From a phage: a stretch of DNA of 64,000 bases. Of this stretch, positions 1 to 64,000 are shown piece after piece. A program made the translations under genes and the position numbers. Numbering within the stretch: position 1 is the stretch's first letter; each line of letters starts with the position of its first letter. The stretch lies in assembly GCA_025677605.1 (NCBI GenBank), contig GCA_025677605.1_4110.1, one strand, 5' to 3'. Under the pieces are notes generated by a model, which had not been told where the DNA came from, did no database searches, and worked only from the letters and a program-made list of their open reading frames with translations.

Positions 1-219
1 TAAGTGTTTTGCATCTTCATCAATCCAATCCTGAAACTGACCATTGTTTACGAGATGTTTATTAACATCACAACAGTTAGGTTGCTTTGATGGTGTACCG
101 TTATATCCAGTACTCAATACTCGGTTATTCTTTACAATAACACAACCTACTTTCTGGGAAAGACACTTACTTTCCTCAGCAACGACACTGGCTATCTTCA
201 ACCACGTTGTATGTTTCAT
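1..219 (-). CDS. cd: dCMP deaminase, 5' part only (gene continues past window start)
   Basis: Minus-strand frame open from Met codon at 217-219 to position 1; N-terminus MKHTTWLKIASVVAEESKCLSQKVGCVIVKNNRVLSTGYNGTPS closely resembles the T4 Cd N-terminus and the CMP/dCMP deaminase core; absent from ORF track because truncated. Confidence 0.8.
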   Translation of the reverse strand, partial: MKHTTWLKIASVVAEESKCLSQKVGCVIVKNNRVLSTGYNGTPSKQPNCCDVNKHLVNNGQFQDWIDEDAKHL

Positions 220-697
220 CATATGTCCCTAAATTGGTTAATAGTTCTTTACAGATCTGATGTGTACGTAAAATACGCATATAGTCTACTATATCTTTCT
301 GTGTAATGTCAAATGGTTTTGAGCTATAAACATTCCAGCAACGAACGATTTCCAGAATGAAATCCACTTCCTTATTCATAATCTTATCAACTGCCACGAT
401 AACATCTTTTTCGTTTTGTTCTAATGTACGACCAGTATCTGAAAAAATCCCACCTAATGTGAACATCGCCCCACTATACAACCCAATAAAAATATCAGAT
501 GGTTTGTACATATTATACATAGTAAGTGCATAAATTTTCATGAAGATATTACGGTGAAAGTGTTTGTATGTTTTTTCTTTAGCTTCGTCTGATACACGGT
601 CAGCTTCCGAAATACATTGTCGCACAAGTTCCAACGTATTGTTTACGTTCTTTAGCCAAATATCAGTATCTTCTTGTGATAATTGATTATAGTTCAT
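176..697 (-). CDS. hypothetical protein (173 aa)
   Basis: Long minus-strand ORF in gene tiling; 3' end overlaps cd start by ~44 nt in another frame. Confidence 0.5.
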   Translation of the reverse strand: MNYNQLSQEDTDIWLKNVNNTLELVRQCISEADRVSDEAKEKTYKHFHRNIFMKIYALTMYNMYKPSDIFIGLYSGAMFTLGGIFSDTGRTLEQNEKDVIVAVDKIMNKEVDFILEIVRCWNVYSSKPFDITQKDIVDYMRILRTHQICKELLTNLGTYDETYNVVEDSQCRC

Positions 698-698
698 A

Positions 699-1208
699 TC
701 ACTCCTTTAATTTTAAAGATTCAACCATCTCTTCACACATTTTCATGTGATGATATTGTTTTTCATCTAAAGTATATGGGATATTACGACCTTGTAAATC
801 CATACTAATATCATAATTTCTATACATAAATGACGAGTGCTTAATCATAAATGTTACAGCTTCCCAAACTTTACCCGATTCTTCATATATTTCCTTAGTA
901 TTGATTGATGTTAATTTTCTAATTTTTTTAATATCCATACCAACAATTGTTGAATTGAAATCAAGTCCAATGTAATTAAAATTCATACAATTATATCTTA
1001 ATACTAGTCCATCTCCCTCAGTTATAGTAGTAAGAAACCACTGGTAATCATTAATTTTATGATACCATTTTCTTGTATTCAAATAATTATCGTACCATTT
1101 CTTGGTTATTTCTATTGCTTCAGTACTGATATTTTTTGCGTACTCATTTATTAAAAACATATTTTTTGAGAACTCAATACTGCTTTCTTTAGTGATTTTA
1201 AAGATCAT
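699..1208 (-). CDS. hypothetical protein (169 aa)
   Basis: Minus-strand ORF, abuts neighbours. Confidence 0.55.
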   Translation of the reverse strand: MIFKITKESSIEFSKNMFLINEYAKNISTEAIEITKKWYDNYLNTRKWYHKINDYQWFLTTITEGDGLVLRYNCMNFNYIGLDFNSTIVGMDIKKIRKLTSINTKEIYEESGKVWEAVTFMIKHSSFMYRNYDISMDLQGRNIPYTLDEKQYHHMKMCEEMVESLKLKE

Positions 1209-1561
1209 TAAAGTATTACCTCCTTCCTAGTGTTACTTGCGTCGCACCAATAAAAGACGTGCCAGTCAGGAAACTCCTTCTTTATTTGTACTGCACAAGC
1301 TTGACTTAATATATGTGATGCTTGTTGGATCATAAACATCCCAGGTGCTTCCACATTTATCATATCCGATGGTGACAGATATGAACTCCAATTGGATGCC
1401 TCCCAAATTTGCTGGTAAACATACAAGCTATGCATTAAACCTGCACTAAAAAGTTTTTTGTATCCATCAAGATCATCATTAATCCAATAGTCTCCTGTTT
1501 CAGAAGTCCATATAGGATCAGATGAATAATCCATATCAACAGAAATGTAAACTTTACTCAT
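1208..1561 (-). CDS. hypothetical protein (117 aa)
   Basis: Minus-strand ORF, 1-nt overlap with downstream gene. Confidence 0.55.
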   Translation of the reverse strand: MSKVYISVDMDYSSDPIWTSETGDYWINDDLDGYKKLFSAGLMHSLYVYQQIWEASNWSSYLSPSDMINVEAPGMFMIQQASHILSQACAVQIKKEFPDWHVFYWCDASNTRKEVIL

Positions 1562-1609
1562 ATAATTTACCTATGCGAAAAGGGAGTACAATGACTCCCA
1601 TTTATTTAA

Positions 1610-2056
1610 TCACTTTTCGGTCGGTGTATAGTTATATTGTTGACAATCTTCAACAGTTAATACACCTTCATCGTAGCCGTACTGAAGTACAATATCAAAT
1701 GCTTCATCTACCATAGTAACAACATCACGATAACGGACAATAGTATGTGCACGTTTTTCAACAGCTTTCATGATACCCATTAGCAGCCATTTACCTTCGT
1801 CGGTATGTAGTTTTGCAAAACGTGGTCGTTTAGTTGCTGCCATAATATCAGTCCAATCAGCCTTAAAGACTTCAGGACGTTTAGGTATATCAAACAATGT
1901 AGTTGGGAAGGTTACATTGTTTTTCTTCATTGCGTCAGCTTGTGCAGCACGATAGCCTTGACGGAAAATTGGATGCTGCATTTTAAGTTGTTCTGGTGAC
2001 AATACTAGTTTATTTTTAAACGCATCATAACCATCTTTGTATTGTTCATTAGCCAT
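1610..2056 (-). CDS. hypothetical protein
   Basis: Track ORF 1610..2149; start moved to internal Met (MANEQYKDG) at 2056, preceded by AAGGA and abutting upstream stop at 2061. Confidence 0.5.
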   Translation of the reverse strand: MANEQYKDGYDAFKNKLVLSPEQLKMQHPIFRQGYRAAQADAMKKNNVTFPTTLFDIPKRPEVFKADWTDIMAATKRPRFAKLHTDEGKWLLMGIMKAVEKRAHTIVRYRDVVTMVDEAFDIVLQYGYDEGVLTVEDCQQYNYTPTEK

Positions 2057-2060
2057 TGTA

Positions 2061-2354
2061 TTATTCCTTATCTTCTGTGCTGACAGCTTTTTTCTCGTTG
2101 AATGAACCGTGTTCGGCTCGCAAATTTGCAGCATATTGCACCGCATCAATTGGTTTAATATTGTTCTTCATAAGAACTTCTTGCATCAATTCAAGAATTT
2201 CAGCCATACCAACCAGTAGGTCTTCTGATTCTTTAATGTCTTTTAGTGCTAACGCTTGAGTACTGATCTGCTCTAGTGCAGTACTGATGAATTCCGAATC
2301 ATCAAGAATTTCAACTTCTTCAGTGCTAGAGTTTCGTACAAGTTTCTTTGACAT
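2061..2354 (-). CDS. hypothetical acidic protein (97 aa)
   Basis: Minus-strand ORF with AAGGAG RBS upstream of ATG at 2352-2354; immediately downstream of ClpP-like gene. Confidence 0.55.
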   Translation of the reverse strand: MSKKLVRNSSTEEVEILDDSEFISTALEQISTQALALKDIKESEDLLVGMAEILELMQEVLMKNNIKPIDAVQYAANLRAEHGSFNEKKAVSTEDKE

Positions 2355-6200: not shown

Positions 6201-7397
6201 TTATAGATAATAGGTTCCATAAAAAATAGGACAGTCAGTGCTAATATGAACCATAGTTTTTTTATTAGATTCTGATGAATTATTACTATATCGTTTGGTC
6301 GGTGGATAGAAAGGTGAATTATAACCACGCCATGTATTGAAAGATGTATGTTCATCGATATCAACATCCATTGACATTACACCATTCGCATCAACTTCTA
6401 CTGGGTATCCGCAGTATTTTTCAAAATCACCCTTGTACGCTATAGAATAATCATGGCGATAATATCCATAGGAATTTCTGCTGTTGTTATCTGAAATACC
6501 AAAGAATACACGATATTTTTGACCATTCTGTTCAGTCATGAATAATACGTTTTCATTGAAACGACCATTAACAAGAACGTCTTTAGTGATTTCAGTGTAT
6601 TTTACTTTCATATCAGTACTTTTAAATGATTTAGTACTGATCAGTACTGGCCTATTACATTCACCTAATGCGTTCTCAGTTCGCATTCGGTACGTATTGA
6701 AATATGCATTTGCTTTAACAATTTCAGCTTCCATTGTTGTTTTAACGTTATGGAGTGCTCTGGGTGTTAATTCGTATCGGTCAAGGCTTGCACATACACC
6801 ATATGTACCATCAGCGATACAATACACCATATGATAGAAAGAACTTTTGTTAGGTAAAGAGAATTCTTTAGTTTTCTTCAAACAAAGAGCATGAACGCGA
6901 CCACAATAGTAGTACTCTTTTTTGTTATAAAGGAATCCATCACCAACTTTCAACTCACCAACAACGCTTTTACGTTCTTCAGCTTTTTCTTGCTTCTCTT
7001 GCATCTTAGCAAATGTTTTTGTATTACCATTGATGAGTTCAAGATTATTATTAAAGAACATAGCATCTTGGAATACACCATTAACGATATCATTGTGTGT
7101 GATTAAGTCCAGCATATTGTTTGCAGTGATATTGAACTCAAATCCTTCTGGGTGACGACAAACAAAATAGGTATCACGCCCACTGTGAATCAATTTTTGA
7201 ACAATAGCAAAACCTTTTTTCGGTTCATTGTCGAGTATAAGTGACGGCATATTATTGGTTCTTGCCCAGTACTCAACACGTTCTTTCTTAGTTTCAAATG
7301 CTTTAGTGTGCATTTTAGTTGCGTCGATAATATATCCGTCAACCTGATCCCCACTAACAAAACGTCTTGCGACGAAAATCTTTTCAGGAAAATTCAT
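6201..7397 (-). CDS. hypothetical protein (~399 aa)
   Basis: Track ORF 6201..7460; likely start at Met (MNFPEKIF) at 7397 forming ATGA overlap with upstream stop. Confidence 0.5.
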   Translation of the reverse strand: MNFPEKIFVARRFVSGDQVDGYIIDATKMHTKAFETKKERVEYWARTNNMPSLILDNEPKKGFAIVQKLIHSGRDTYFVCRHPEGFEFNITANNMLDLITHNDIVNGVFQDAMFFNNNLELINGNTKTFAKMQEKQEKAEERKSVVGELKVGDGFLYNKKEYYYCGRVHALCLKKTKEFSLPNKSSFYHMVYCIADGTYGVCASLDRYELTPRALHNVKTTMEAEIVKANAYFNTYRMRTENALGECNRPVLISTKSFKSTDMKVKYTEITKDVLVNGRFNENVLFMTEQNGQKYRVFFGISDNNSRNSYGYYRHDYSIAYKGDFEKYCGYPVEVDANGVMSMDVDIDEHTSFNTWRGYNSPFYPPTKRYSNNSSESNKKTMVHISTDCPIFYGTYYL

Positions 7398-13384: not shown

Positions 13385-13412
13385 AAAAGAAAAGGGATCA
13401 GTACTGATCCCT
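13385..13412 (-). terminator. rho-independent terminator downstream of pseT
   Basis: Perfect palindrome AGGGATCAGT/ACTGATCCCT at 13393-13412 followed on minus strand by U-rich run. Confidence 0.6.
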
Positions 13413-51787: not shown

Positions 51788-52000
51788 AATAACCTCTACT
51801 ATAATTAATAAGGTAAACTACAATATAAGGAGCACGTTCGGCGGCGGGGTATTTTTTTGTTTAAGGAAACATGAACTGTACTCTGAAAAACACAATATAA
51901 AATTTTATATTAAACATATACCTTAACATGTTTTTCAGCGAAAATTTTTTTGACCCCCCAAAACGCCCCCAAAAACAAGCCTATATTTATCATTTTAAAA

Positions 52001-52567: not shown

Positions 52568-53103
52568 TACTCCCCCTTAATCTCTTTGAGATCTTTTACT
52601 AACCTATCGTACCACGTTAAAGCTAAAAAGAAATTCGTTTTCACATTAGCACGTAATACATTATATACTTGCTGCACCTGTAAAACATAAGGATCTTGTA
52701 CTAAGGACTCCTGAAAATATTCTTCAGGACTCAGGATGTTAGGATTCAAGGTTGCAATATCAACGTGCTTTGTTAAACCAAAAAAGGTTTCTTCCTCTCT
52801 CTTGCTCATATCCAAATAACGAATCCAATTCACTGGAGCGAACTCTTCAGATGCTGATGTAGCCGATGTAATAGCATTGAACAAAAGACAATACTCTAAC
52901 TGCATCTTCTCACCTACAGCGTGCATTACCGTATCTCTCCTGTAATACACAATAGAGGGATACTTTTCAATATCGCTCTTAGGCTCAAGCCATCCTTCCT
53001 TGTGCTTAGGATAGATGTGGTCAAAATCCCCAGCCTCAAACGCCTGTACGATTTTTACTAAATTGTCAGCGAACTCGTACTCAAAATGTTTGTGCTGGAT
53101 CAT
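52567..53103 (-). CDS. FQ-family paralog, hypothetical
   Basis: Motif PEEYFQESLVQ. Confidence 0.55.
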   Translation of the reverse strand: MIQHKHFEYEFADNLVKIVQAFEAGDFDHIYPKHKEGWLEPKSDIEKYPSIVYYRRDTVMHAVGEKMQLEYCLLFNAITSATSASEEFAPVNWIRYLDMSKREEETFFGLTKHVDIATLNPNILSPEEYFQESLVQDPYVLQVQQVYNVLRANVKTNFFLALTWYDRLVKDLKEIKGE

Positions 53104-53134
53104 CTAAATCACTCCCGTCTTTGTTGTATTGTGT

Positions 53135-53164
53135 GTTATTGCATGTTATTGCATGTTATTGCGT
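53135..53164. repeat. three tandem copies of a 10-bp unit (GTTATTGCAT x2, GTTATTGCGT)
   Basis: Direct tandem repeat in the 62-bp intergenic gap between two array genes. Confidence 0.7.
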
Positions 53165-53165
53165 A

Positions 53166-53804
53166 TTATAACACAATCTCTTTTAACTTCAAAATGAAAT
53201 CTTCATATACTTTTATCTGAAAATGCGGACTCTGTGCACTGAAACTAAACCCAGGTTCAATCAATTTCTTGTACTCATTTGCATATTTGCACAACTTCAG
53301 GATTTCGGTAGGGTCCACCATATCCTTCTGTACTAAGGACATTTGAAAAAGCACTTCCTCTACACCCTCGTACTCTTGACCTGCAATGTAACATATGTCA
53401 TCGTCTAACGATAATGATATGAACGTCTTTGTACTTATTACATTACCATCTTTTGAAACACCATAATCTGCAACTGAATCCACAAAGGAATCCGGCTTAG
53501 ATGAACCTGCTATGTCGCAAATGTACTTGTCAATGTATGTGATGTTATTGTTGTTATCGAATATACCAAATGCTAATGACGTGTCAAATACTTCCCTGAA
53601 ACCAATTCTGTCACTACCGATAACTAAAACTAATTTACCACAGGATGCACTGTATCTGGATGCGGAATCAAATGGAATCTCCAATTTTGAATTCTCAGGG
53701 AAAATAGCATTGAACTTCTTTAGCATTTCAAACATATAAGGAACATGAGGCTCCATGAACTTCATCACCTCATACGGTGAAGCATTTCTGGGAAAATTAT
53801 GCAT
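53166..53804 (-). CDS. FQ-family paralog, hypothetical
   Basis: Motif EEVLFQMSLVQ. Confidence 0.55.
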   Translation of the reverse strand: MHNFPRNASPYEVMKFMEPHVPYMFEMLKKFNAIFPENSKLEIPFDSASRYSASCGKLVLVIGSDRIGFREVFDTSLAFGIFDNNNNITYIDKYICDIAGSSKPDSFVDSVADYGVSKDGNVISTKTFISLSLDDDICYIAGQEYEGVEEVLFQMSLVQKDMVDPTEILKLCKYANEYKKLIEPGFSFSAQSPHFQIKVYEDFILKLKEIVL

Positions 53805-54366
53805 ATGTACTTACCCTTAAATTTTCGAAATCCCATACATCACTGATTGTACCATTGTGCCTGTAATCATAATATTGTACTAATACATTATACAATAACT
53901 TCAACGATACAAATTCATGATTCCACGGGGCTTTATTCTCATGAACACATTTAGAGATATAAGGTATCATATATAAAGCAACCATCTCTAATGGTTCATG
54001 TACACATTGCTTTTGAAAATATTCTTCTTCTTGCATACAATGCTCAGGAATAATTAGATCACCATGTTTACCGAAGACATATGAACCTACTGTGTATTTT
54101 TTCACATCGCAAGCGAACCATATTGTACTATCCGAAACAAATGGAATGATACCATTATTGTTTGCAATGTACATCATATGGTAAGAGCTATTTGACTTGT
54201 TAAATACCTCTATACTTTTAATATTACTACAAATCGCGTATTCAATACAATCAATAATCTTATCTTTAAATACACCAATTTCATTGAATGTCATTGCTTT
54301 CTGTACTTGCGATGTTTGCGATGTTTGCATGGGGTTCTCCTTAAAAATGTTCAGGTATATTAGCAC
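53797..54366 (-). CDS. FQ-family paralog, hypothetical
   Basis: Motif EEEYFQKQCVH. Confidence 0.55.
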   Translation of the reverse strand: MLIYLNIFKENPMQTSQTSQVQKAMTFNEIGVFKDKIIDCIEYAICSNIKSIEVFNKSNSSYHMMYIANNNGIIPFVSDSTIWFACDVKKYTVGSYVFGKHGDLIIPEHCMQEEEYFQKQCVHEPLEMVALYMIPYISKCVHENKAPWNHEFVSLKLLYNVLVQYYDYRHNGTISDVWDFENLRVSTYA

Positions 54367-54410
54367 CGATTCGGTACTGTGTCAATACCAAAACGAAAAA
54401 AGCCCATATC

Positions 54411-54908
54411 TTACGATACAGGCTCGGTTGGGTAAAAGGACTCATATACATTTTTCATTTGCTGGAAATAAAAATATACATGATTCTTAAGCACACCATT
54501 CTCATAAAGCATCTTGTATATTGCGTAGAAAAAGATATCAATTTCTTCATGTATTGTACTGTACTGGAACCACAACTCCGGTGTCAAGGGTTCTGGACTG
54601 TATTTGATTTCCAACAAAGCATCATCCATTGGCTTATCACGTCCTGGATACATATACCAAAGGTCATCTCTTTCCAGACGAAGATCATCTTCATCAGGAT
54701 ATACATTGTCAGGAGCAAAATTTAAAAAACTAAAAAGCACTTTACCTGAATTTGATTCTTCTAACTGATTGTTAATATAATCATATTTGTGATTTATTGA
54801 AGCATATCCTTTTCCTTCATATGCTTTCATTATATTGTATACACCTTCAATGTACTTAACGTACTGTACAGCACTCTCTAAACTAAATTCCACTTTACAT
54901 TTTTGCAT
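54411..54908 (-). CDS. FQ-family paralog, hypothetical
   Basis: Motif PELWFQYSTIH. Confidence 0.55.
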   Translation of the reverse strand: MQKCKVEFSLESAVQYVKYIEGVYNIMKAYEGKGYASINHKYDYINNQLEESNSGKVLFSFLNFAPDNVYPDEDDLRLERDDLWYMYPGRDKPMDDALLEIKYSPEPLTPELWFQYSTIHEEIDIFFYAIYKMLYENGVLKNHVYFYFQQMKNVYESFYPTEPVS

Positions 54909-55279
54909 AATAAAATAATCTCAACTAAAGCAAGAACTGTATTGAATTCCACTATACTTGTAATTCCCTGAAGGTACATGTACTTTGCTATTACATATTT
55001 CTGTACTAAATTATCATTCTTCTTGAATTCATCAAACGCATCATTACAACGTGTCATGTATTCTGTACTCAAAAATATCTTATGCATCTCTAATGCACTC
55101 TGATAATATGCATACAACTCACGAATATCTATACTACGTAAATCACGTTGTTCGTACTTGTGATACGGAATAGCTTCAATTTCAATATTATAAAACCATT
55201 CTGTTAACTTATTAATATCAAATGTATTATTGTACTTCGAGGTCATAATATTTCCTTTCCCATTCGGATACATGGGCAT
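54878..55279 (-). CDS. hypothetical protein (133 aa)
   Basis: Minus-strand ORF; family motif not evident. Confidence 0.45.
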   Translation of the reverse strand: MPMYPNGKGNIMTSKYNNTFDINKLTEWFYNIEIEAIPYHKYEQRDLRSIDIRELYAYYQSALEMHKIFLSTEYMTRCNDAFDEFKKNDNLVQKYVIAKYMYLQGITSIVEFNTVLALVEIILLCKNVKWNLV

Positions 55280-55535
55280 TAAAATTCATAACAGCTTTCT
55301 GTATCTTTTTTAATAATAACACATCATATCCACCTGTGTCAATCACTAATTGCTGTTGAAACAATTCTTCGTCGGATAATGTATTGAAATCTACAAAATA
55401 ATCTGTGACTTCGTTATCATTTAAATGTGCCATGTACCAACCTGAACTACATGAATAAATCAAATTCCAACCGTCTTCATCGCCTTCTAATTCAACATAA
55501 ATCATATCTTTTGTATAAAGCATTCTATACTTCAT
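55227..55535 (-). CDS. FQ-family paralog, hypothetical
   Basis: Motif DEELFQQQLVI. Confidence 0.5.
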   Translation of the reverse strand: MKYRMLYTKDMIYVELEGDEDGWNLIYSCSSGWYMAHLNDNEVTDYFVDFNTLSDEELFQQQLVIDTGGYDVLLLKKIQKAVMNFNAHVSEWERKYYDLEVQ

Positions 55536-56040
55536 AACTATATCCTTGCATCAAAATATCATAAACTGCTTGAATGTCAGGAACTTTTATATAAAATTTA
55601 AAACCCTTAATTAAAGGATTCGCGTACAATGAACTGAATAACTTTAGATAATGCATTTGACGAGGACTATATAATAACGATTTCTGAAATAATTCAGCAC
55701 TACAATCTGTACTAATATCAATTAAATCAATTCGTTCTTCTACTTCATCATCTTGTTTCAAATCATAAAAGAAATAATCGTTTGTGTTTACCCACAAATA
55801 CCCTTCTTTATTTTCGTATACAACAGGAGATGTTTGTACCGGATTGGCTTGGGTAAATGCTGCAATACAAACGTTAACATTCCCTGCATTATTTGCATTG
55901 TGAAACATAAACGATAATTTACCATGCCTATCTTCTATGCGTAATTCATCTATATCAATGTACTTATGTATAGGATGATTATTTTTGAGCATAAGCATTA
56001 TTGTACTAATCTTGTGCGTTAATAATTCAATTTCATTCAT
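55525..56040 (-). CDS. FQ-family paralog, hypothetical
   Basis: Motif SAELFQKSLLY. Confidence 0.55.
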   Translation of the reverse strand: MNEIELLTHKISTIMLMLKNNHPIHKYIDIDELRIEDRHGKLSFMFHNANNAGNVNVCIAAFTQANPVQTSPVVYENKEGYLWVNTNDYFFYDLKQDDEVEERIDLIDISTDCSAELFQKSLLYSPRQMHYLKLFSSLYANPLIKGFKFYIKVPDIQAVYDILMQGYSYEV

Positions 56041-56046
56041 ATATTA

Positions 56047-56430
56047 TTACCTATAGCATTTGAGCACTGTAACCAATCCCTCTGCATTCTTGAAATGCAT
56101 TAAAGACAATGAACTATCAACGTACTGCAATGATATAATTACATCCTGTTCTGTGTGTTTGAATAAAAATTCCTGTACCGAATTCGTACCATAATACATG
56201 TACTTCGTTGCTTCAATCTGCAAATAAGGCACTTCTGTATTGTGTAAAAAGATATTGATTATTTCATTATTCTGTAATCTGCAATCAAATTTGTATGTTT
56301 CATATAACGGTACATCCGATGATGCCTGTACTGCCTGTACTGCCTGTGCTGCATGAGCGGTGTTTATAAATGATAAAAACACAAATGTTAAAATGAATAT
56401 GATTTTATTGAACATGTTTTGTTTCCTCAA
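56047..56430 (-). CDS. secreted protein with N-terminal signal peptide
   Basis: Basic N-terminus, hydrophobic core IIFILTFVFLSFI, AHA-AQ cleavage-like site, then AQAVQAVQA repeat. Confidence 0.55.
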   Translation of the reverse strand: MRKQNMFNKIIFILTFVFLSFINTAHAAQAVQAVQASSDVPLYETYKFDCRLQNNEIINIFLHNTEVPYLQIEATKYMYYGTNSVQEFLFKHTEQDVIISLQYVDSSLSLMHFKNAEGLVTVLKCYR

Positions 56431-56624
56431 TAATGTTTGTACTTGTGTAAAATTCTATCCTGTACTGAAAGATGCTCAAATATAATTACACTCAAATAAT
56501 AATTGTAATCATTGATACCACCCCTCAAATGCATATTGTAATACAGCTTAATACTATCTAATAATGAATCCTGTAATGCATGTAATGCATTTAATGTCTT
56601 TGCATCTATCATCATCTTTCCCAT
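56427..56624 (-). CDS. hypothetical small protein (65 aa)
   Basis: Minus-strand ORF, ATGA overlap. Confidence 0.45.
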   Translation of the reverse strand: MGKMMIDAKTLNALHALQDSLLDSIKLYYNMHLRGGINDYNYYLSVIIFEHLSVQDRILHKYKHY

Positions 56625-57013
56625 TTAATAGGGTATTCCGTTTCATTCACTACATACGACATAATCCATCCGTAATGGATAGGATGATATTTGTCTGAAT
56701 CAGGAATAAAATATAAAGCTGTACTGGGATTATAACTGAAGAAATCCCTCTCGTCAAATGTTAATCTGGCTAACTTAATTTTCCTTGGAATTGCATGAGG
56801 ACGAACTGCATTCTTTACACAGAATATACCATCTTTGTATTTTGGTTCGATAACACCCAATGCACTCTGGATTAACTCCTGAAAGACTAAATTGATTTGT
56901 GCAAATGAATCCTTGTTGTTATGCATTTCGTGCCATAAATCTCGTCTTGCATTTAACATCATTATTACTGGTCTAAGATCCTGTACTATTGTTAGATTCT
57001 GCATTGTATTCAT
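56612..57013 (-). CDS. hypothetical protein (133 aa)
   Basis: Minus-strand ORF. Confidence 0.5.
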   Translation of the reverse strand: MNTMQNLTIVQDLRPVIMMLNARRDLWHEMHNNKDSFAQINLVFQELIQSALGVIEPKYKDGIFCVKNAVRPHAIPRKIKLARLTFDERDFFSYNPSTALYFIPDSDKYHPIHYGWIMSYVVNETEYPIKWER

Positions 57014-57230
57014 TTATCTCATTCTGTAACTTAACAACCAAAATTTGCGTATGAATTTTTCGCTCAAGGTGCTTGATAAATTTCTGTACCATTTCTTCTT
57101 GTACTGATGTACCAAGATAAAATAACATATTAAATTCTGATAATCGCAGAGCAAAATCTTCATCGCCCCCCTGTAAACAAAAATCCCTGTACTTCGATGC
57201 GTACAAATGATGGTTTACATTTTTGTACAT
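56973..57230 (-). CDS. GTNYQ-family small protein (diverged), hypothetical
   Basis: Motif FYLGTSVQEE. Confidence 0.45.
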   Translation of the reverse strand: MYKNVNHHLYASKYRDFCLQGGDEDFALRLSEFNMLFYLGTSVQEEMVQKFIKHLERKIHTQILVVKLQNEINEYNAESNNSTGS

Positions 57231-57433
57231 TTAGACTCCTTTGGTGTGCATACTATCTCTGTTCGTAAAGCCCTTATGTATGCATCAACGAATTGTGGCT
57301 GTGCTCTCGTTCCTAGATAAAATAATAAATCGAACTCTGCCATTTTAACATTAAAAGGATCTGAATCTACATTTCGAATAAACTGTCTGTACTTCAATTC
57401 ATATCCGTTAGGCATCTTCTTGTATACTATCAT
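57215..57433 (-). CDS. GTNYQ-family small protein (diverged), hypothetical
   Basis: Motif FYLGTRAQPQ. Confidence 0.45.
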   Translation of the reverse strand: MIVYKKMPNGYELKYRQFIRNVDSDPFNVKMAEFDLLFYLGTRAQPQFVDAYIRALRTEIVCTPKESKCTKM

Positions 57434-57743
57434 ATTCTATACAATCACCTCTTTTAATCGAATCCCAAACTTCTTTCATCCTCTTCTGTAAACTGCACAT
57501 AATATCTATATCAAACATATAAGGGTCATGAATTAGACTGTACTGAAATAATTCATCTTCCTGCATAAGAGAAAGATCCTGAAGCAACTCGTACTTACCT
57601 AAACTCCTGGGACTCAAATAAGCAAAATATTCTTTACCGTCCTCAAAAACATAATGTACTTCATGATTCATGTACTTCTTGTAATTCTCATGCGTATAAG
57701 CAAATATACAACCGGAATTAATTCGGTGAATGTTGAATTTCAT
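57408..57743 (-). CDS. FQ-family paralog, hypothetical
   Basis: Motif EDELFQYSLIH. Confidence 0.55.
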   Translation of the reverse strand: MKFNIHRINSGCIFAYTHENYKKYMNHEVHYVFEDGKEYFAYLSPRSLGKYELLQDLSLMQEDELFQYSLIHDPYMFDIDIMCSLQKRMKEVWDSIKRGDCIEYDSIQEDA

Positions 57744-57752
57744 ATTAATCTC

Positions 57753-58109
57753 TTATACGTAAATTGGATGAATATTTTGAAGGAAATGCTTAGAAATATT
57801 CATACATGATATCATCTGCCTTTGTACTTCCTTCATCTCTTTGTATGTCAACCCAAAAGAATCATCGTATACTAACATGTACTGAAACTCTTCTTCTTCA
57901 GAGATATCAACTAGATTCGGTACTGCTATCGTATTTTCATATGATTTGATACCTTCTACCCAATAGAAACAATTATCAACTTTATTGTACTCAAATATCT
58001 TAACCCCAGGCCCACCCTGTACATTGGTCAACGCAATGAAACATGTATTCGCTCTTTTTATACAATTGATCTTACGCATTATCGCATTATCTCCATCTCT
58101 CTCCGTCAT
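57753..58109 (-). CDS. FQ-family paralog, hypothetical
   Basis: Motif EEEEFQYMLVY. Confidence 0.55.
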   Translation of the reverse strand: MTERDGDNAIMRKINCIKRANTCFIALTNVQGGPGVKIFEYNKVDNCFYWVEGIKSYENTIAVPNLVDISEEEEFQYMLVYDDSFGLTYKEMKEVQRQMISCMNISKHFLQNIHPIYV

Positions 58110-58332
58110 CGCAAGAGTACTGGTACGTTGTCGTTAGGGTAGGAATCATGTTCGTAATCGGCATATTATTCACAATAACCGTTACGGGCATCATAACCGT
58201 CTCTTTTCTACTCTGTCCTGTCTTTGTGCAATTCATCTTGTGCATTTCATCTGAATCCAGATACGCTAATACAAACGGTGCAATCCCAAGAACAATACAC
58301 AAGACGATAAGGAAATTTAAAAATTTTAACAT
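58087..58332 (-). CDS. small membrane protein (81 aa)
   Basis: N-terminal TM helix FLNFLIVLCIVLGIAPFVLAYL. Confidence 0.45.
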   Translation of the reverse strand: MLKFLNFLIVLCIVLGIAPFVLAYLDSDEMHKMNCTKTGQSRKETVMMPVTVIVNNMPITNMIPTLTTTYQYSCDDGERWR

Positions 58333-58370
58333 AATCTGTACCCTATGATTAACGTTAGTGTACTATAGCA

Positions 58371-58601
58371 CTACAATAGAGTACTGTCAACTGCTTTGTT
58401 CTCTATTATACTCATTAAACCCCAAATTAGATAACGAACACTATCAGCTTGATAGTTAGTACCTACTGTGCATTTTAAAATTAACTCATCTTTCAGTACT
58501 GCACGTTCTTCTTGGGATATAGGAAGAGAATTTATTTGTTTTATTTGTGGTTGTAAAGTATTAATAAGCTTGCAGTACTCTTCGAATGATAATCTTTTCA
58601 T
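58371..58601 (-). CDS. GTNYQ-family small protein, hypothetical
   Basis: Motif KCTVGTNYQAD. Confidence 0.5.
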   Translation of the reverse strand: MKRLSFEEYCKLINTLQPQIKQINSLPISQEERAVLKDELILKCTVGTNYQADSVRYLIWGLMSIIENKAVDSTLL

Positions 58602-58604
58602 GGT

Positions 58605-58946
58605 TCAGTACTCAATAATGTGTTCTTCATAAGCACTATTAGGCTCCTGTTTAGTTTCTTTTATTAGTACTATCATCTTATGTGCCAATGGCATAGGAAA
58701 CTCTAAATCCCATACTAATGATTCTTGAAAGTATTCTTCTTCAGATAAAGTACTTAAATCTTCAATGTCAATGTGTTCGTACATGTTATATTTGTAATCA
58801 GCAAAAGATATATAAAAACCTCTTGTAGAATCGTAAGTAATCGTGAATGGCTTACCTTTGTAGTCCATTACATCTTTACATAGACTGCATTTGATATATG
58901 TACTTGCAAATGATTTATAAACCTTAAGTTGAATATTAGTTTTCAT
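58605..58946 (-). CDS. FQ-family paralog, hypothetical
   Basis: Motif EEEYFQESLVW. Confidence 0.55.
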   Translation of the reverse strand: MKTNIQLKVYKSFASTYIKCSLCKDVMDYKGKPFTITYDSTRGFYISFADYKYNMYEHIDIEDLSTLSEEEYFQESLVWDLEFPMPLAHKMIVLIKETKQEPNSAYEEHIIEY

Positions 58947-58948
58947 TT

Positions 58949-59170
58949 TTAAACACCTATTCCATTAGCAATAGCAGTACTTAACGCTAACAAATACTTC
59001 TGTACTGCTTGCTCTTGATGATCTGTACCTAAAAGTATATACACCCATAATTCACTGTAGTGTACATCTTCTGTATAAGGGTTGTTGTAACTTTTTGATA
59101 ATATAGCATCAAATTCAGATGCATGAACCCTTGTGAACTTAAGAATATCTTGTTGTGTTATGATTCTCAT
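58949..59170 (-). CDS. GTNYQ-family small protein, hypothetical
   Basis: Motif ILLGTDHQEQ. Confidence 0.5.
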   Translation of the reverse strand: MRIITQQDILKFTRVHASEFDAILSKSYNNPYTEDVHYSELWVYILLGTDHQEQAVQKYLLALSTAIANGIGV

Positions 59171-59382
59171 AGCTTTTCCTGTATAAGCTTCTTAAGTATT
59201 TCTATGTGTGAATTAACAGTTCTTTCTTGATGCTGTGTTCCTAAGAGTATCAGTACTATCATCTCTGAACGCAAAAGATTTTTTTCAAGTTCCCCTATAT
59301 CAGTTCTTGTATCAAGTACTAAAAATTTGTGATTATTCTTTCTGAATAGTTCTAAGTACTCTTGATTTGATATTGTCTTCAT
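59167..59382 (-). CDS. GTNYQ-family small protein, hypothetical
   Basis: Motif ILLGTQHQER. Confidence 0.5.
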   Translation of the reverse strand: MKTISNQEYLELFRKNNHKFLVLDTRTDIGELEKNLLRSEMIVLILLGTQHQERTVNSHIEILKKLIQEKL

Positions 59383-59609
59383 AGTTTATCCCTGATGCCA
59401 TTTAAAAGTGCTCTAATATGCTCCTGTACGAATTTGTACTGACTGTCTGTTCCTAGAGTGAGTAACAATCTTAAATCTGAACTTTTGATATGATATTCTA
59501 AATCATTATTTGATTCTTGCCTCAGTTTCTGAAAGGATGAGAAGTTTGCTGCCATTAGTTCAATGTATTCTGCTGTTCCTAGGGGTTTGTGTATGTGCTG
59601 TCTGTGCAT
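59379..59609 (-). CDS. GTNYQ-family small protein, hypothetical
   Basis: Motif LTLGTDSQYK. Confidence 0.5.
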   Translation of the reverse strand: MHRQHIHKPLGTAEYIELMAANFSSFQKLRQESNNDLEYHIKSSDLRLLLTLGTDSQYKFVQEHIRALLNGIRDKL

Positions 59610-59815
59610 TTTAATTGTATTACCCTTTTAAGTGTATTAATATAATCCACGATGATGTGTTCTTGATAGTTAGTTCCTATAGTAGCTAGAACATAGATTT
59701 CACTTATTAGAATATTTTTTTCATCCTGTGATAATTCTTCTGACCAGCTACGATGCAACTTTGGAATTAAACTACTTAATAGTTGGTTGTATTCAGTAGG
59801 TGAAATGATTTTCAT
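59579..59815 (-). CDS. GTNYQ-family small protein, hypothetical
   Basis: Motif ATIGTNYQEH. Confidence 0.5.
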   Translation of the reverse strand: MKIISPTEYNQLLSSLIPKLHRSWSEELSQDEKNILISEIYVLATIGTNYQEHIIVDYINTLKRVIQLKCTDSTYTNP

Positions 59816-60027
59816 TTACATCTTCTCAGTACTGATTCTTTAAGTTCATCGATGTAGTCCTCAACAAATTGTTCTTGTAGGTTTGTTCCGAGATGTAACA
59901 GTACTCTTAAATCTGCTCTAAGTACTTCTTTGTCATCTTCATCTATATCAGACAGTGATATGTTTAAGAATTTACTTGAATTCTCTATAAGTAATATTAC
60001 TTCATCACCTTCGCTTAAAATTTTCAT
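59812..60027 (-). CDS. GTNYQ-family small protein, hypothetical
   Basis: Motif LHLGTNLQEQ. Confidence 0.5.
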   Translation of the reverse strand: MKILSEGDEVILLIENSSKFLNISLSDIDEDDKEVLRADLRVLLHLGTNLQEQFVEDYIDELKESVLRRCK

Positions 60028-60239
60028 AATCTTTGTGTTTTCCTCGACAGTAGGTACAGGTAACGTTCAGTGCATTGTTCTTGATAGTTTGTTCCTAATA
60101 AATGAACTAATTGTTGTTCAGCTATAGAAAGCTGTTTATCTTCATAACAAGCGTATCGTTGTTTCCTATGGTATTCTTTATTGATAACATCAAGGATGAT
60201 AACACCGTATTCGTCATCTGTCAAGTGTTTCATGTGCAT
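60024..60239 (-). CDS. GTNYQ-family small protein, hypothetical
   Basis: Motif HLLGTNYQEQ. Confidence 0.5.
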   Translation of the reverse strand: MHMKHLTDDEYGVIILDVINKEYHRKQRYACYEDKQLSIAEQQLVHLLGTNYQEQCTERYLYLLSRKTQRL

Positions 60240-60471
60240 TTCTTTTTCTTATATGTTTAGTTAAAAGGTATATTAGTTTTCTTACGTACTCGTCTTGATA
60301 GTTAGTCCCTAATAGTGCAAGAAGTTTTGCTTCAACTAAAGCTAATTGTCGTTCTTCAAATGTGTGTTCCAGAATGTACTTGGGGTTTGATTTTTTAGAA
60401 ATTGCACTATTAGTCTTCATTATAATCTTATGATATTCATTGACTGTTAAGATTTTTATATATTTGGTCAT
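60214..60471 (-). CDS. GTNYQ-family small protein, hypothetical
   Basis: Motif ALLGTNYQDE. Confidence 0.5.
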   Translation of the reverse strand: MTKYIKILTVNEYHKIIMKTNSAISKKSNPKYILEHTFEERQLALVEAKLLALLGTNYQDEYVRKLIYLLTKHIRKRNAHETLDR

Positions 60472-60727
60472 GTATCTTTTCCTGAATAGTCATTTTAAGA
60501 TATCTAAGAATCGATCGAACATAATACTCCTGTCTATCGGTTCCAAGAAAGTACAGGAGTTGTTGATATAATACTTCTGCACTCCTTGCAGCAGGGGTTT
60601 GATTTGGGTCTTTTGGAAGTTGATTTGTATGTTTTCTGGATTTAATTATTCTTTCTTTTATTTCATCGTCTGTTAAGTATATCATTTGCATTTTATGTTC
60701 CTCACATGAATTGTTTGGATTAAACAT
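60437..60727 (-). CDS. GTNYQ-family small protein, hypothetical
   Basis: Motif YFLGTDRQEY. Confidence 0.5.
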   Translation of the reverse strand: MFNPNNSCEEHKMQMIYLTDDEIKERIIKSRKHTNQLPKDPNQTPAARSAEVLYQQLLYFLGTDRQEYYVRSILRYLKMTIQEKIHDQIYKNLNSQ

Positions 60728-60918
60728 TCAATCCAAGATGTAACATATCTTGTTTGATATTGTGTGCCTAAGAGACTCTGCATTTTAAACTCTGCTTCAA
60801 GTTCATATCTCTTTTCTATCGTAAAGCTTAAATGACCATATTCTGCATCGTATCTTCTCAGTGATTCCCCAATTCTATCAAATCTTTCTGCTAAGTTGAT
60901 GTTATTCACAGTATTCAT
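60682..60918 (-). CDS. GTNYQ-family small protein, hypothetical
   Basis: Motif SLLGTQYQTR. Confidence 0.5.
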   Translation of the reverse strand: MNTVNNINLAERFDRIGESLRRYDAEYGHLSFTIEKRYELEAEFKMQSLLGTQYQTRYVTSWIECLIQTIHVRNIKCK

Positions 60919-61178
60919 CGATCAGTACACCTCAGTGGTTGGGTCATTTGATAAAAGTACAGCTTACCTCTGATTTCCATTAACAACTCGGCTATGACGC
61001 GATTTACTTCTGTCTCTTGATAGTTTGTTCCTAAGAAGACACCCATCTTTAACTCACGATGCATAATCATCTTCTTACTGTGTTGAATTTCTTGGCTGTA
61101 ATAGATTGCATTACGTTTAGGTGAGATTTTTGCTAGTCGCTCGTTATATTCATCTTGACTTAAATTAATCATTTGCAT
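60915..61178 (-). CDS. GTNYQ-family small protein, hypothetical
   Basis: Motif VFLGTNYQET. Confidence 0.5.
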   Translation of the reverse strand: MQMINLSQDEYNERLAKISPKRNAIYYSQEIQHSKKMIMHRELKMGVFLGTNYQETEVNRVIAELLMEIRGKLYFYQMTQPLRCTDR

Positions 61179-61393
61179 TTACTTTGGACCTCATTTTGAA
61201 GTGCATTAATGACCTTCAGTACAGCACTCGCTTGATAGTTTGTTCCTAAGACTGAAAGCATCTTGATCTCATTTACTACAATCCACTTATTTGATTGTTC
61301 AATAATGTGACTTTCATAAATGGCCTTGCGTAATGAATAAGTTTTTGCAAGACGTACATAATATTCATCTTTACTTAAATTAATCATTTGCAT
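61169..61393 (-). CDS. GTNYQ-family small protein, hypothetical
   Basis: Motif SVLGTNYQAS. Confidence 0.5.
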   Translation of the reverse strand: MQMINLSKDEYYVRLAKTYSLRKAIYESHIIEQSNKWIVVNEIKMLSVLGTNYQASAVLKVINALQNEVQSKCK

Positions 61394-61602
61394 TTACTTT
61401 TAACCTCTTTCTGGAGTGCATCAATCCATAGGTCTATATACGTTTGTTGATAGTTTGTGCCTAAGAGTGCCTCTACATAGAGTTCAGCTACCTTTGCGTG
61501 CTTTAGGTCAACAGGGATGCTCTTATCGCTTGATAACATTCTCCTTCTGCTGGTGCATGTTTTCAGAAGCCTGATGTATTCAACACCTTGTAATTTTCTC
61601 AT
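61384..61602 (-). CDS. GTNYQ-family small protein, hypothetical
   Basis: Motif ALLGTNYQQT. Confidence 0.5.
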   Translation of the reverse strand: MRKLQGVEYIRLLKTCTSRRRMLSSDKSIPVDLKHAKVAELYVEALLGTNYQQTYIDLWIDALQKEVKSKCK

Positions 61603-61814
61603 TCTCTGGATATCACCTTGTTACGTAGACTTGCTAACCATGCGTCAGTATAGATGTTTTGATAGTTTGTCCCAATGAAGATAGATAGCTTCATTTCAGT
61701 TATTATAACACATTTGTCCACTTGTGCAATAGATTTGTTTAAAGAAATACTAGAAACTTTTGCTTGTATAGTTCGCAACAGCCTGTAATATTCATACCCA
61801 CTAAGGATTTTCAT
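61599..61814 (-). CDS. GTNYQ-family small protein, hypothetical
   Basis: Motif IFIGTNYQNI. Confidence 0.5.
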   Translation of the reverse strand: MKILSGYEYYRLLRTIQAKVSSISLNKSIAQVDKCVIITEMKLSIFIGTNYQNIYTDAWLASLRNKVISRE

Positions 61815-62061
61815 TCTCTCGTCTCCAGACTTCCGTTCTTATATGTTGTTGATATGCTTCCAGATAGTTCTCTATTGCCTTAGAGATTGTTTGTGTATCG
61901 TCGCCCGTCATCAGTACAAGCATCTCTGCTTCACAGTGTATAAGTCTGCTAATATCATTAGTGAGTTTATCAGATACCGTATCATAGTGTTTGTGGATTA
62001 GTTTCTGAAATAGTTTAACGTACATAATGTGATTTATTCTGGATCGCATTGTCTTTTCCAT
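61801..62061 (-). CDS. GTNYQ-family small protein (diverged), hypothetical
   Basis: Motif LMTGDDTQTI. Confidence 0.45.
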   Translation of the reverse strand: MEKTMRSRINHIMYVKLFQKLIHKHYDTVSDKLTNDISRLIHCEAEMLVLMTGDDTQTISKAIENYLEAYQQHIRTEVWRRENENP

Positions 62062-62285
62062 TCTCTTTTGGCCTGTCGGGTTTTATACGCTACAAGGTTT
62101 CTTAGTGCATTGATATAACGATCAGTGAAGATATCTTGTTTATTAGTTCCAACGAATTTAAGAAGAAACACGTCACCATTAACTACATCATTCTCAGGGG
62201 AAGGATAAAGTTCATTGTTCTTGCGAAGGGTGTTTAGTAAAGAGAATAGGGCAGATTGATACTCAGTGCTTGATAATACTTTCAT
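62034..62285 (-). CDS. GTNYQ-family small protein, hypothetical
   Basis: Motif KFVGTNKQDI. Confidence 0.5.
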   Translation of the reverse strand: MKVLSSTEYQSALFSLLNTLRKNNELYPSPENDVVNGDVFLLKFVGTNKQDIFTDRYINALRNLVAYKTRQAKREWKRQCDPE

Positions 62286-62509
62286 TAGTTCATTCCCTTT
62301 CTTTCTATATGTTTCATAAGAACATTAAGATACTCACCCACAAACCTATTCTGATACTGCGTCCCCATGAATTCAAACAGCCATACTTCAGCAACCATTT
62401 CTTCAATTTCATTCCAAGATAAGTACATCATAGTGAAGTAAATGTGGTTCTCTTTTTGAGATGCACTCCTTGAGCGAGCCTCGTATTCAAAGTTATTAAT
62501 GCAGTTCAT
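62285..62509 (-). CDS. GTNYQ-family small protein, hypothetical
   Basis: Motif EFMGTQYQNR. Confidence 0.5.
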   Translation of the reverse strand: MNCINNFEYEARSRSASQKENHIYFTMMYLSWNEIEEMVAEVWLFEFMGTQYQNRFVGEYLNVLMKHIERKGMN

Positions 62510-62718
62510 AGTTTACTCCTGATGTATTTCTCAAGAGCTATTAGATACTCTTGGACATAAGATTTCTGGTGGTCAGTTCCTAAGAAGACACCCAGAAGTA
62601 ATTCTTTTTCCATAACTTTTGATAAGTATACATCATCCCTGTCTGCATATATCAGCAAGATTTCAATCTGCTTAGAATTGTAACGTTTCCTATATTGCTC
62701 TGGTGTTAATATAATCAT
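62506..62718 (-). CDS. GTNYQ-family small protein, hypothetical
   Basis: Motif VFLGTDHQKS. Confidence 0.5.
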   Translation of the reverse strand: MIILTPEQYRKRYNSKQIEILLIYADRDDVYLSKVMEKELLLGVFLGTDHQKSYVQEYLIALEKYIRSKL

Positions 62719-62924
62719 AGTTTACTCTTTATATCTTCAATTAAAAATCCAATACAATCATTGACATACTCTTCCTGAAAGTTAGTCCCCAGTACAGCCA
62801 ACATGCGATACTCTGCTGACCTTATCGCTCTTTCAGTTTTTGGTAAGTTACGTGGTATAGTTACCATCAATTCAAGATACTCCACCATACGACTCAATGC
62901 TTGTCTTTGTGTTATAGTTTTCAT
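62715..62924 (-). CDS. GTNYQ-family small protein, hypothetical
   Basis: Motif AVLGTNFQEE. Confidence 0.5.
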   Translation of the reverse strand: MKTITQRQALSRMVEYLELMVTIPRNLPKTERAIRSAEYRMLAVLGTNFQEEYVNDCIGFLIEDIKSKL

Positions 62925-63121
62925 AATTTACACCTCGCTCGTATGTCAGCTTTCAAAGATTCCAAATAGTGCGTTACCCACACTTCCTGATAGTTGGTTC
63001 CCATCGTAATCAACAGGTACAACTCAACTCTTTCTAAGTGCACATTGCTTTGGTAAATCCTTGCCGTGTTTTTACGTAGTATATGATGATATTCATCTTG
63101 GGTTAATGTACGCATTTTCAT
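62921..63121 (-). CDS. GTNYQ-family small protein, hypothetical
   Basis: Motif ITMGTNYQEV. Confidence 0.5.
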   Translation of the reverse strand: MKMRTLTQDEYHHILRKNTARIYQSNVHLERVELYLLITMGTNYQEVWVTHYLESLKADIRARCKL

Positions 63122-63315
63122 AGTTTACCATTTATCTCTAAACATAACTCTTTTACATATAGTTTAACATATTCATTTTGTAAGTTAGTTCCTAAGAATA
63201 GTTCCATAACTAATTCACGTTTATAGGCATTACCACGTTTATGAGACTTATACATTATCATAGCCATGTTATTGATAAGTCTTTCGTGATGCTCTTCTTG
63301 TGTTAAAATACGCAT
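63118..63315 (-). CDS. GTNYQ-family small protein, hypothetical
   Basis: Motif LFLGTNLQNE. Confidence 0.5.
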   Translation of the reverse strand: MRILTQEEHHERLINNMAMIMYKSHKRGNAYKRELVMELFLGTNLQNEYVKLYVKELCLEINGKL

Positions 63316-63342
63316 AGGGCAAATTCCATAGGTTCATATATG

Positions 63343-63371
63343 AAAAAACATCATACCCCATATGAGGCATG
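63343..63371 (-). terminator. putative rho-independent terminator
   Basis: Imperfect hairpin (G-U pairs on minus-strand RNA) at 63352-63371 followed by UUUUUU. Confidence 0.4.
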
Positions 63372-63381
63372 ATGTCAAGTG

Positions 63382-63966
63382 TTAAAGCTTACCCATGTAA
63401 GTAAGTTCTTCCATAATAAATTTTAGTCCAGCTTCGTCGGTGAGTTCAGTACAGCCATCTTTGATTTTAACATGTTGCATATGATTAATTAAATTAGTAT
63501 ACTTCAACATATCCTCAAGGTCAGCAGCTTCAACTGAGTTTTCAAACAGTACAGCTATGATTTCTTCAGAATCGAACCTATTGTTATATTTGAATAGTTC
63601 ACGACGATTTGTTAAATTATGAGTAACTCCGTATTTGTAAACAACTTCACTATTGTGGATGAACTTATTGACATAGAAATAAGCTTCATGCGAACCATTG
63701 AATGTCTTACGCTTATAACAATCTGGGCAGTTTGTTATATTACCATTTTCAACTATATGACACATTTTTCGTTCAAAAATACAACCACATTTACATTCAA
63801 GATTGCATGTGTAATTACCATATACTCCATGTCTATTTGATTTACCTGACGGAATATACCCATTACATCTTATATCATTTCCCTGAAATTCTAGAATGCA
63901 ATTAGCAACGTAAACTATATCTTTATCAGTATATCGTATACGAGAAATATTATTAGCTTTCATCAA
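63382..63966 (-). CDS. Cys-rich putative zinc-binding protein (194 aa)
   Basis: Cluster CNGY...CNLECKCGC...CHIVENGN...CPDC in N-terminal half; possibly nuclease-like but fold not recognised. Confidence 0.5.
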   Translation of the reverse strand: MMKANNISRIRYTDKDIVYVANCILEFQGNDIRCNGYIPSGKSNRHGVYGNYTCNLECKCGCIFERKMCHIVENGNITNCPDCYKRKTFNGSHEAYFYVNKFIHNSEVVYKYGVTHNLTNRRELFKYNNRFDSEEIIAVLFENSVEAADLEDMLKYTNLINHMQHVKIKDGCTELTDEAGLKFIMEELTYMGKL

Positions 63967-64000
63967 ATAATTAGCTGACCTTGTAAGTAAAACACCATTA

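Follow-up and report, generated by a model that had tools for sequence, protein, structure and literature searches.

AGTACT, a palindromic hexamer, occurs 185 times in a 64-kb stretch of phage DNA (the window, meaning here the whole 64,000 nucleotides that were analysed), where dinucleotide shuffles give 17.3 ± 4.6 copies and at most 29, and it is held there by selection on the DNA itself, not on protein sequence. The window is 95–99% identical to Escherichia phage A4 (ON286972.1, Asteriusvirus, 355.5 kb), whose group comprises the RaK2/121Q-like jumbo myoviruses. It runs from position 91267 down to 25992 of A4, its genes lie on the minus strand throughout, and its source is an E. coli phage. 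AGTACT is a clade-specific signature word of RaK2-like jumbo phages and, in what is the leading but by no means assured interpretation, the site of a putative dimeric phage DNA-binding protein that would mark or organise the chromosome and regulate early promoters.

Markov models of orders 0, 1, 2 and 3 predict 21.5, 17.9, 37.7 and 77 copies of AGTACT in the window. The word ranks first among the window's hexamers by z-score and is the sole palindromic hexamer there that is more than 1.8-fold over-represented. Its GTAC core is present 552 times against 190 expected, and the preferred form, the extended 8-mer CAGTACTG, is present 53 times against 0.78 (68-fold). The whole A4 genome holds 922 copies of AGTACT where 101 are expected, and 224 of CAGTACTG where 4.8 are expected. 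Window and genome thus both have the many-fold, genome-wide palindrome excess that characterizes words of the type of the cyanobacterial highly iterated palindrome HIP1 (GCGATCGC). The word forms named for a comparison of binding are CAGTACTG and CAGTACAG.

The over-representation had been noticed in an initial annotation of the window, and counting bears it out (185 against about 18 expected), under Markov and codon-aware models alike. The estimate made there of about 30 sites in the first ~10 kb agrees with 32 counted at 1–10 kb, and the three sites placed within 6610–6650 are indeed found, at 6615, 6633 and 6643. A site assigned to a terminator loop does occupy a hairpin apex, at 13400–13405 instead of 13401–13406, and a cluster at 58.0–60.0 kb is real with 14 sites, not 11. 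The enrichment had also been described as extending along all of 1–64000; the excess stands and the uniformity does not, with 51451–58115 and 59927–64000 free of the word.

Several observations place the constraint at the DNA level. As the initial annotation had proposed, sites occupy every reading frame and intergenic DNA (82, 28 and 59 in the three frames, plus 16 non-coding), and the density is 2.9 per kb in coding and 2.8 per kb in non-coding DNA. Shuffling synonymous codons within genes leaves 49.8 ± 5.8 in-gene copies (maximum 66) of the 169 observed, a 3.4-fold excess, and permuting codons leaves 24.1 ± 5.1, a 7-fold excess. The proteins of the window contain 143 Ser-Thr dipeptides against 75 expected, 158 Val-Leu against 102 and 65 Gln-Tyr against 41; this excess is produced by AGTACT, and the word has in this sense shaped the proteins. 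Because all frames and non-coding DNA are occupied, both codon-aware nulls are exceeded and the dipeptides are inflated, selection must act on the DNA word rather than on what it encodes, which is what the same annotation had suggested. It had named a few repeated protein motifs as the alternative. There are, however, 180 distinct flank contexts for the 185 sites, and 80 of the 140 genes in the window contain at least one, so repeated motifs are no explanation and paralog-motif repeats are rejected as the source.

The word is also symmetric beyond its six bases. Its flanks are mirrored, with C at −1 and G at +1 at 97 of the 185 sites each, despite the single-strand gene layout, and the outer C and G are independent of one another (odds ratio 1.24, not significant). 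In the bulk genome, observed-to-expected ratios are 1.95 for AGTACV, 1.87 for BGTACT and 1.14 for BGTACV; AGTACT itself reaches 8.27, against a multiplicative prediction of 3.2 from the half-words. The full palindrome is therefore 2.6-fold beyond two independent half-words in the bulk genome (odds ratio 2.59, p = 9e-27), and the corresponding odds ratio in the terminal repeat described below is 10.4. Given this excess over the half-word prediction, the whole hexamer is read as a dyad. Single-nucleotide deviants, taken position by position, stand at 1.87, 1.18, 1.48, 1.22, 1.16 and 1.95 times expectation, a concentration at the outer positions of the kind seen for HIP-type words; single half-words are still ~1.9-fold enriched, above the inner-position variants (1.2–1.5).

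AGTACT is the top hexamer, 8–12-fold enriched, in each of four relatives compared as 41–50 kb samples: 121Q, Serratia phage BF (Eneladusvirus), Klebsiella phage RaK2 (Alcyoneusvirus) and Cronobacter phage GAP32 (Mimasvirus). The initial annotation had called for such a count in related phages, and with Asteriusvirus the enrichment is common to four genera, besides being genome-wide in A4. It is absent from T4, which has the same host and the same G+C content (12 against 8.8 expected, 1.4-fold), and from a 100–150 kb segment of the distant giant phage XacN1 (0 against 9.3 expected). A 50 kb sample of E. coli K-12 contains three copies (0.06 per kb), and with 2.6 per kb in the phage the contrast to the host is ~40-fold. 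The clade-wide excess, together with the absence from T4, XacN1 and E. coli, indicates an old, clade-specific trait. In 20.4 kb of the window that aligns with 121Q at 81% identity, 48 of 72 sites are kept (67%), compared with 36.5% of all hexamers (p = 2e-7). AGTACT thus combines frame-independent occurrence inside open reading frames and in the DNA separating them with conservation above background, again as HIP-type words do. Twenty orthologue pairs shared with Serratia phage BF (11.5 kb, codon-aligned) contain 39 and 40 sites, of which four are shared, equal to the hexamer background of 8%. At 81% identity the sites are under purifying selection; at deeper divergence the density is kept and the positions are not. 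Such short-term preservation with long-term turnover at a held density is the behaviour of a dispersed word, unlike that of fixed operators.

The density of AGTACT reaches its maximum, 6–8 per kb, in a 21 kb terminal repeat that lies just outside the window. In fEgEco12, a phage of the same genus, the termini have been mapped experimentally and the direct terminal repeat is 20,993 bp long. Positions 1–20993 of fEgEco12 correspond to 4.44–25.39 kb of A4, which lies ~0.6 kb past the window's right end. Of the 140 sites in the repeat, 40 are within sense-oriented promoters; the antisense control gives 6. In 17 cases the word is fused to the −35 element (AGTAC-TTGCAA), and in 24 it directly adjoins the −10 element (AGTACT-G-TATAAT or AGTACT-GG-CATAAT); in some promoters, two AGTACT are 20 bp apart. 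Serratia phage BF and RaK2 each have a ~21 kb dense AGTACT array with an equal promoter design. The repeat is additionally marked by a higher G+C content (0.36–0.42) and an array of tiny genes that have one rightward sigma70-type promoter apiece, mostly with a 16-bp spacer, in a layout reminiscent of the T5-type pre-early region.

This fixed, orientation-dependent sigma70-type placement is confined to the terminal repeat. Inside the window, 6 of the 185 sites are embedded in promoters, against 7 in the antisense control, and the profile of AGTACT around gene starts is flat save for a dip over ribosome-binding sites, so a promoter element within the window is rejected. The corresponding figures for the bulk genome are 20 against 11 (antisense) among 726 sites. 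Spacing is near-random and slightly even, with a coefficient of variation of 0.84–0.91 compared with 0.99 ± 0.07, and in the part within the window the gaps reach at most 1.1 kb, where a maximum of 1.8 ± 0.4 kb is expected. No short-gap excess, cooperative arrays or helical phasing were found among the bulk-genome sites, and there is no association of AGTACT with TATAAATA, which occurs 13 times only.

At the other extreme are two blocks next to the terminal repeat from which the word is excluded (Table 1). The first, 6.7 kb long, is polar. AGTACA is 14-fold enriched there and distributed over all three frames (12, 18 and 11, plus 2 non-coding), and AGTAC occurs ~52 times on the sense strand and not once on the other. 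It is the single polar AGTACA block in the 355 kb A4 genome. Its counts, 43:0:0, are repeated in 121Q and in fEgEco12, in a region where 121Q and the window can be aligned over just 3.1 of 8.5 kb; the block is weak in RaK2 and did not appear in the initial 67 kb of BF. The palindrome is evidently harmful in some contexts, and in this block its broken, oriented form is itself selected. The proteins encoded there have no Pfam matches and belong to PHROGs families without assigned function. Many paralogous genes with an E-E-x-F-Q-(E/Y)-S-L-(V/I) core, the FQ family of the initial annotation, are found at 36000–58000, and in the polar block an F-Q-Y-S-T version of the core is written in overlapping AGTACA words (CAGTACAGTACA). 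The local cluster that follows the block recurs in 121Q and fEgEco12. The second excluded block lies directly inside the boundary of the terminal repeat, which is reached ~0.6 kb past the end of the window, and AGTACT falls to zero exactly at that boundary. So sharp an exclusion implies that AGTACT has consequences where it is present. A tandem array of ~20 paralogous ~70-residue genes with a ~215 bp period (phrog_4148) occupies 58374–64000. An origin-like flip of polarity around 58–60 kb is not relied on: the opposite polarity at 59.9–64 kb is weak (9:1), and both it and the changes in skew coincide with the 215-bp paralog array.

Table 1. Coordinates, within the 64-kb window, of the features discussed in the text.
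Feature	Position	Strand	Description
Bulk region	1–51450		171 dispersed AGTACT, ~3.3 per kb, inside and between minus-strand genes; CAGTACTG preferred
Triple site	6615–6648		Three AGTACT in 34 bp, in one gene
Intrinsic-terminator-like hairpin	13385–13414	−	AAAGGGATCAGTACTGATCCCTTT with a T-run after it; apex occupied by CAGTACTG; RNAfold −21.4 kcal/mol for an 80-nt segment
Dam-family DNA adenine methyltransferase, 173 aa	23790–24311	−	Pfam PF05869, E = 4e-32
Polar block	51451–58115	−	AGTACT 0; sense strand with 43 AGTACA, all three frames represented, and 0 TGTACT
Local cluster	58116–59926		14 AGTACT in 1.8 kb, between two AGTACT-free stretches
AGTACT-free stretch	59927–64000		0 sites, ~12 expected at bulk density; array of ~70-aa paralogs with a ~215 bp period

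The tentatively favoured model, a dimeric binding protein, accounts for these features as follows. A putative two-fold-symmetric dimer encoded by the phage would recognise AGTACT and would sit on phage DNA about every 400 bp, ~40 times more densely than on host DNA. Such occupancy could mark or organise the phage chromosome. In the terminal repeat, where the word takes two fixed positions in early promoters (fused to the −35 element or abutting the −10 element), the same protein may bind the word as an operator and so regulate early transcription. A phage DNA-binding factor had been among the roles suggested in the initial annotation, as had a recombination or replication signal. We infer both that the word would be read by a binding protein and not by an enzyme, and what such binding would achieve. 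Some of the data weigh against this model. The bulk sites are without clustering, helical phasing or a relation to gene starts, which leaves an architectural role undefined. The higher ratios of the outer-position variants (1.9) relative to the inner ones (1.2–1.5) would also fit a nested GTAC or AGTAC core with a different reader. In the promoters, AGTACT could in part serve RNA polymerase contacts; for example, its CTG yields an extended −10-like TG. The sense-only AGTACA block is not predicted by simple dimer binding. Finally, no candidate binding protein has been identified, and the model is built from sequence.

It may be, instead, that the functional unit is a strand-specific half-word, (C)AGTAC, recognised by a machine moving along DNA or working on single strands, and that the palindrome is a compact form serving both strands. 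Candidate readers would include a T4-type primase, a helicase-nuclease with a private Chi-like signal, or a translocase. The polar block is an argument for this possibility, with AGTAC at ~52:0, no AGTACT, and the pattern kept in A4, 121Q and fEgEco12 despite sequences that barely align. Strand bias of the type known for Chi and the FtsK-orienting polar sequences (KOPS) occurs locally there (43 AGTACA against 0 TGTACT at 51451–58115), and is lacking in the dominant palindrome. The 1.9-fold enrichment of single half-words everywhere, a spacing a little more regular than chance would give and with maximal gaps that are shorter, the highest density at the physical ends of the genome, the ~40-fold contrast with host DNA, and a density conserved while positions turn over, as in Chi-type words, all point the same way. 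The palindrome is, however, 2.6- to 10-fold above what independent half-words would give, the strict polar block is limited to Asteriusvirus, RaK2 and BF having it weakly or not at all, no enzyme is known to read the half-word, and the opposite polarity at 59.9–64 kb may be an artefact of the paralog motif. A half-word reader seems unlikely, if worth keeping in view.

A modification target is another explanation on the unlikely side that deserves attention. AGTACT or GTAC would be the substrate of a phage methyltransferase or other enzyme, as for HIP1, with a benefit from modification density or from modification-dependent repair or marking. Hyper-abundant palindromes in cyanobacteria each co-occur with a cognate orphan methyltransferase, and deviants there have the same outer-position bias (PMC4390886). 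A type II-like enzyme would moreover explain the dyad symmetry. The initial annotation had pointed to the Dam-like methylase of the window in this context. A4 has a second methylase, a C5 cytosine methyltransferase split by an intein, and both enzymes are conserved across the clade. The link to AGTACT is not borne out: the first is a member of PF05869, a widespread phage family with 1253 records, and RaK2 DNA is reported to behave as Dam- and CpG-methylated, with 5mCpG detected by bisulfite (data not shown in the RaK2 paper), so both clade methylases are plausibly accounted for without AGTACT. Neither is supported as the reader of the word, and their distribution over the clade does not discriminate. 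No further modification genes, ScaI-like genes included, were recognised in the annotation. Ten enzymes cut fEgEco12 DNA as predicted, which argues against blanket hypermodification of that DNA; none of their recognition sites overlaps GTAC, so AGTACT itself lies outside those sites, and modification there would be compatible with these digests. Modification alone explains neither the advantage of more sites nor the fixed promoter positions. The intein of the C5 methylase (A4 292647–294545) is of the Hint/LAGLIDADG type and interrupts the enzyme exactly at its catalytic P-C-Q motif (GGFP|C...VVHN|CQAWS); in most relatives the enzyme is uninterrupted, with 286 residues.

A more speculative and rather improbable idea is that of a two-word self/host code in DNA that is not hypermodified. 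AGTACT would be a positive mark and GCGC (0 in 355 kb of phage, 6.8 per kb in E. coli) a negative one, both read by phage enzymes. For example, DNA rich in GCGC might be where a nuclease for host-DNA degradation or recombination cuts, or what licenses it, and AGTACT, in the manner of a palindromic Chi signal private to the phage, might halt or divert that enzyme; the oriented AGTACA block beside the terminal repeat might then control direction-specific processing of the genome end.

A neutral drive, in which biased mutation or mismatch repair keeps making functionless AGTACT, is quite improbable. Such a drive has been proposed for HIP1, and the turnover of positions between genera at a persisting density would suit it. 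However, one-off neighbours in the window are undepleted (AGTATT at 1.02, AATACT at 1.19 and AGTGCT at 2.2 times expectation), which is evidence against a repair-type drive, and a mechanism resembling very-short-patch repair is rejected since its transition neighbours are not depleted. Sites are also conserved above background, the word is excluded from two blocks with one specific oriented variant in its place, and its promoter positions are fixed in three genera.

The host nucleoid-occlusion factor SlmA can be set aside as a very remote prospect. In this case AGTACT, which forms the central six bases of the SlmA-binding sequence GTGAGTACTCAC (SBS), would recruit SlmA to block cell division, and cells do filament on infection with Sharanji, which belongs to the same genus. 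SlmA requires G at position 1, T at position 2 and a purine at position 3 (PMC3020112). A4 has no full SBS match, GTR-flanked half-sites number 16 against 56.8 expected (3.5-fold depleted), and at position −1, 48% of half-sites have C and 8% have G; SlmA sites are rejected on these flank statistics. The GTR depletion beside AGTACT could mean that the making of host SlmA sites is actively avoided.

A coding artefact, in which codon usage, dipeptide preference or a few repeated paralog motifs make the word, has in its favour that AGT, ACT and GTA are preferred codons, that 82 sites encode Ser-Thr and that paralog families are common in the window, but it is refuted by both codon nulls and is practically out of the question given the equal non-coding density, the diversity of flank contexts and the lack of enrichment in T4.

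Among described systems, HIP1 and the alternate cyanobacterial palindromes are the most similar to AGTACT. They too are far above expectation in all frames and between genes, are conserved above background and hence selected rather than replenished (PMC5861425), and have single-nucleotide deviants biased to the outermost positions (Elhai; PMC4390886). AGTACT differs in belonging to a phage and not a cellular genome, in being an A+T-rich 6-mer (8-mer CAGTACTG) and not a G+C-rich 8-mer, in having no evident cognate methyltransferase, in being built into early promoters, and in being excluded from defined blocks. The SlmA-binding sequence has the identical central hexamer and is recognised by a dimeric helix-turn-helix protein (PMC3020112); the flanks it requires are absent, even depleted, around the phage sites. 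ScaI-type targets are the identical 6-bp palindrome, with the dyad symmetry typical of type II enzymes. Such restriction targets are avoided in phage genomes, whereas AGTACT is 9–10-fold enriched while G+C-rich palindromes are absent.

Chi, KOPS, DNA uptake sequences (DUS) and uptake signal sequences (USS) are dispersed, selected words read by DNA-processing machines, and are asymmetric and oriented genome-wide. With them AGTACT shares a selected density with positional turnover, frame independence within genes and a contrast between self and foreign DNA, and the complete orientation bias of the AGTACA block at 51.4–58.1 kb is a further likeness. The dominant form of AGTACT differs in being palindromic and favoured beyond two half-words. 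The AGTACA block also resembles T7 CAGCAG (EcoP15I), an asymmetric word in one orientation across a phage stretch. CAGCAG in T7 is not enriched, and its single orientation is explained by type III restriction; AGTACA, by comparison, exceeds expectation 14-fold and does so within 6.7 kb only. The phage proteins SPO1 TF1 and phi29 p6 bind the phage chromosome along its length and are repressors of early promoters as well, which is the mode of action proposed here for a reader of AGTACT. They recognise modified DNA or bendability, not a defined hexamer, and no homologue of either was identified here.

No report of an AGTACT excess in jumbo phages was found in the searchable literature, nor any paper containing both AGTACT and the term 'jumbo phage', and full-text matches to CAGTACTG are primer noise only. 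The genome papers on Sharanji, fEgEco12 and RaK2 leave palindromes and promoters unmentioned, and the single 'motif' among them, in the Sharanji paper, concerns domains of proteins. Against that literature, the occurrence in a phage of a selected word at such abundance is new, and HIP1 is the closest described phenomenon. The promoter embedding, the concentration in the terminal repeat, the exclusion zones and the polar hemi-palindrome block are without a described counterpart.

Other short words are unusual in these genomes as well. GCGC is absent from the window (28.6 expected), from all 355 kb of A4 (214 expected) and from the samples of 121Q, Serratia phage BF, RaK2 and GAP32; T4 has 44 copies where 56 are expected. 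The window contains no copies of 17 G+C-rich 6-bp palindromes (each with an expectation of at least 3, summing to 82), and GATC and CTAG stand at 0.49 and 0.43 of expectation. In XacN1, the segment at 100–150 kb has 0 GATC where 210 are expected, beside its 0 AGTACT, so different branches of giant phages fully exclude different words. The window is 95.3% identical to A4 at 54380–63688 and 98–99% identical elsewhere; it therefore represents an isolate distinct from A4, with a faster-evolving region after the repeat.

Avoidance of short palindromes is textbook behaviour for phages. The present clade fully avoids the G+C-rich ones, and yet keeps AGTACT at 9–10 times expectation at a measurable cost to its proteins. 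Upkeep of the word at that cost, visible in the inflated Ser-Thr, Val-Leu and Gln-Tyr, implies a strong and undescribed sequence-specific DNA transaction in jumbo phages that are therapeutic candidates and have more than 80% of their genes without known function. The clade can be diagnosed by AGTACT and by the GCGC void, and the two allow early promoters and the boundary of the terminal repeat to be located with nothing but the sequence. AGTACT is additionally the equivalent in a phage of what HIP1 poses in cyanobacteria, a puzzle open for three decades, and a one-hour life cycle, a tractable host and an early-promoter read-out make the role of hyper-abundant palindromes directly testable.

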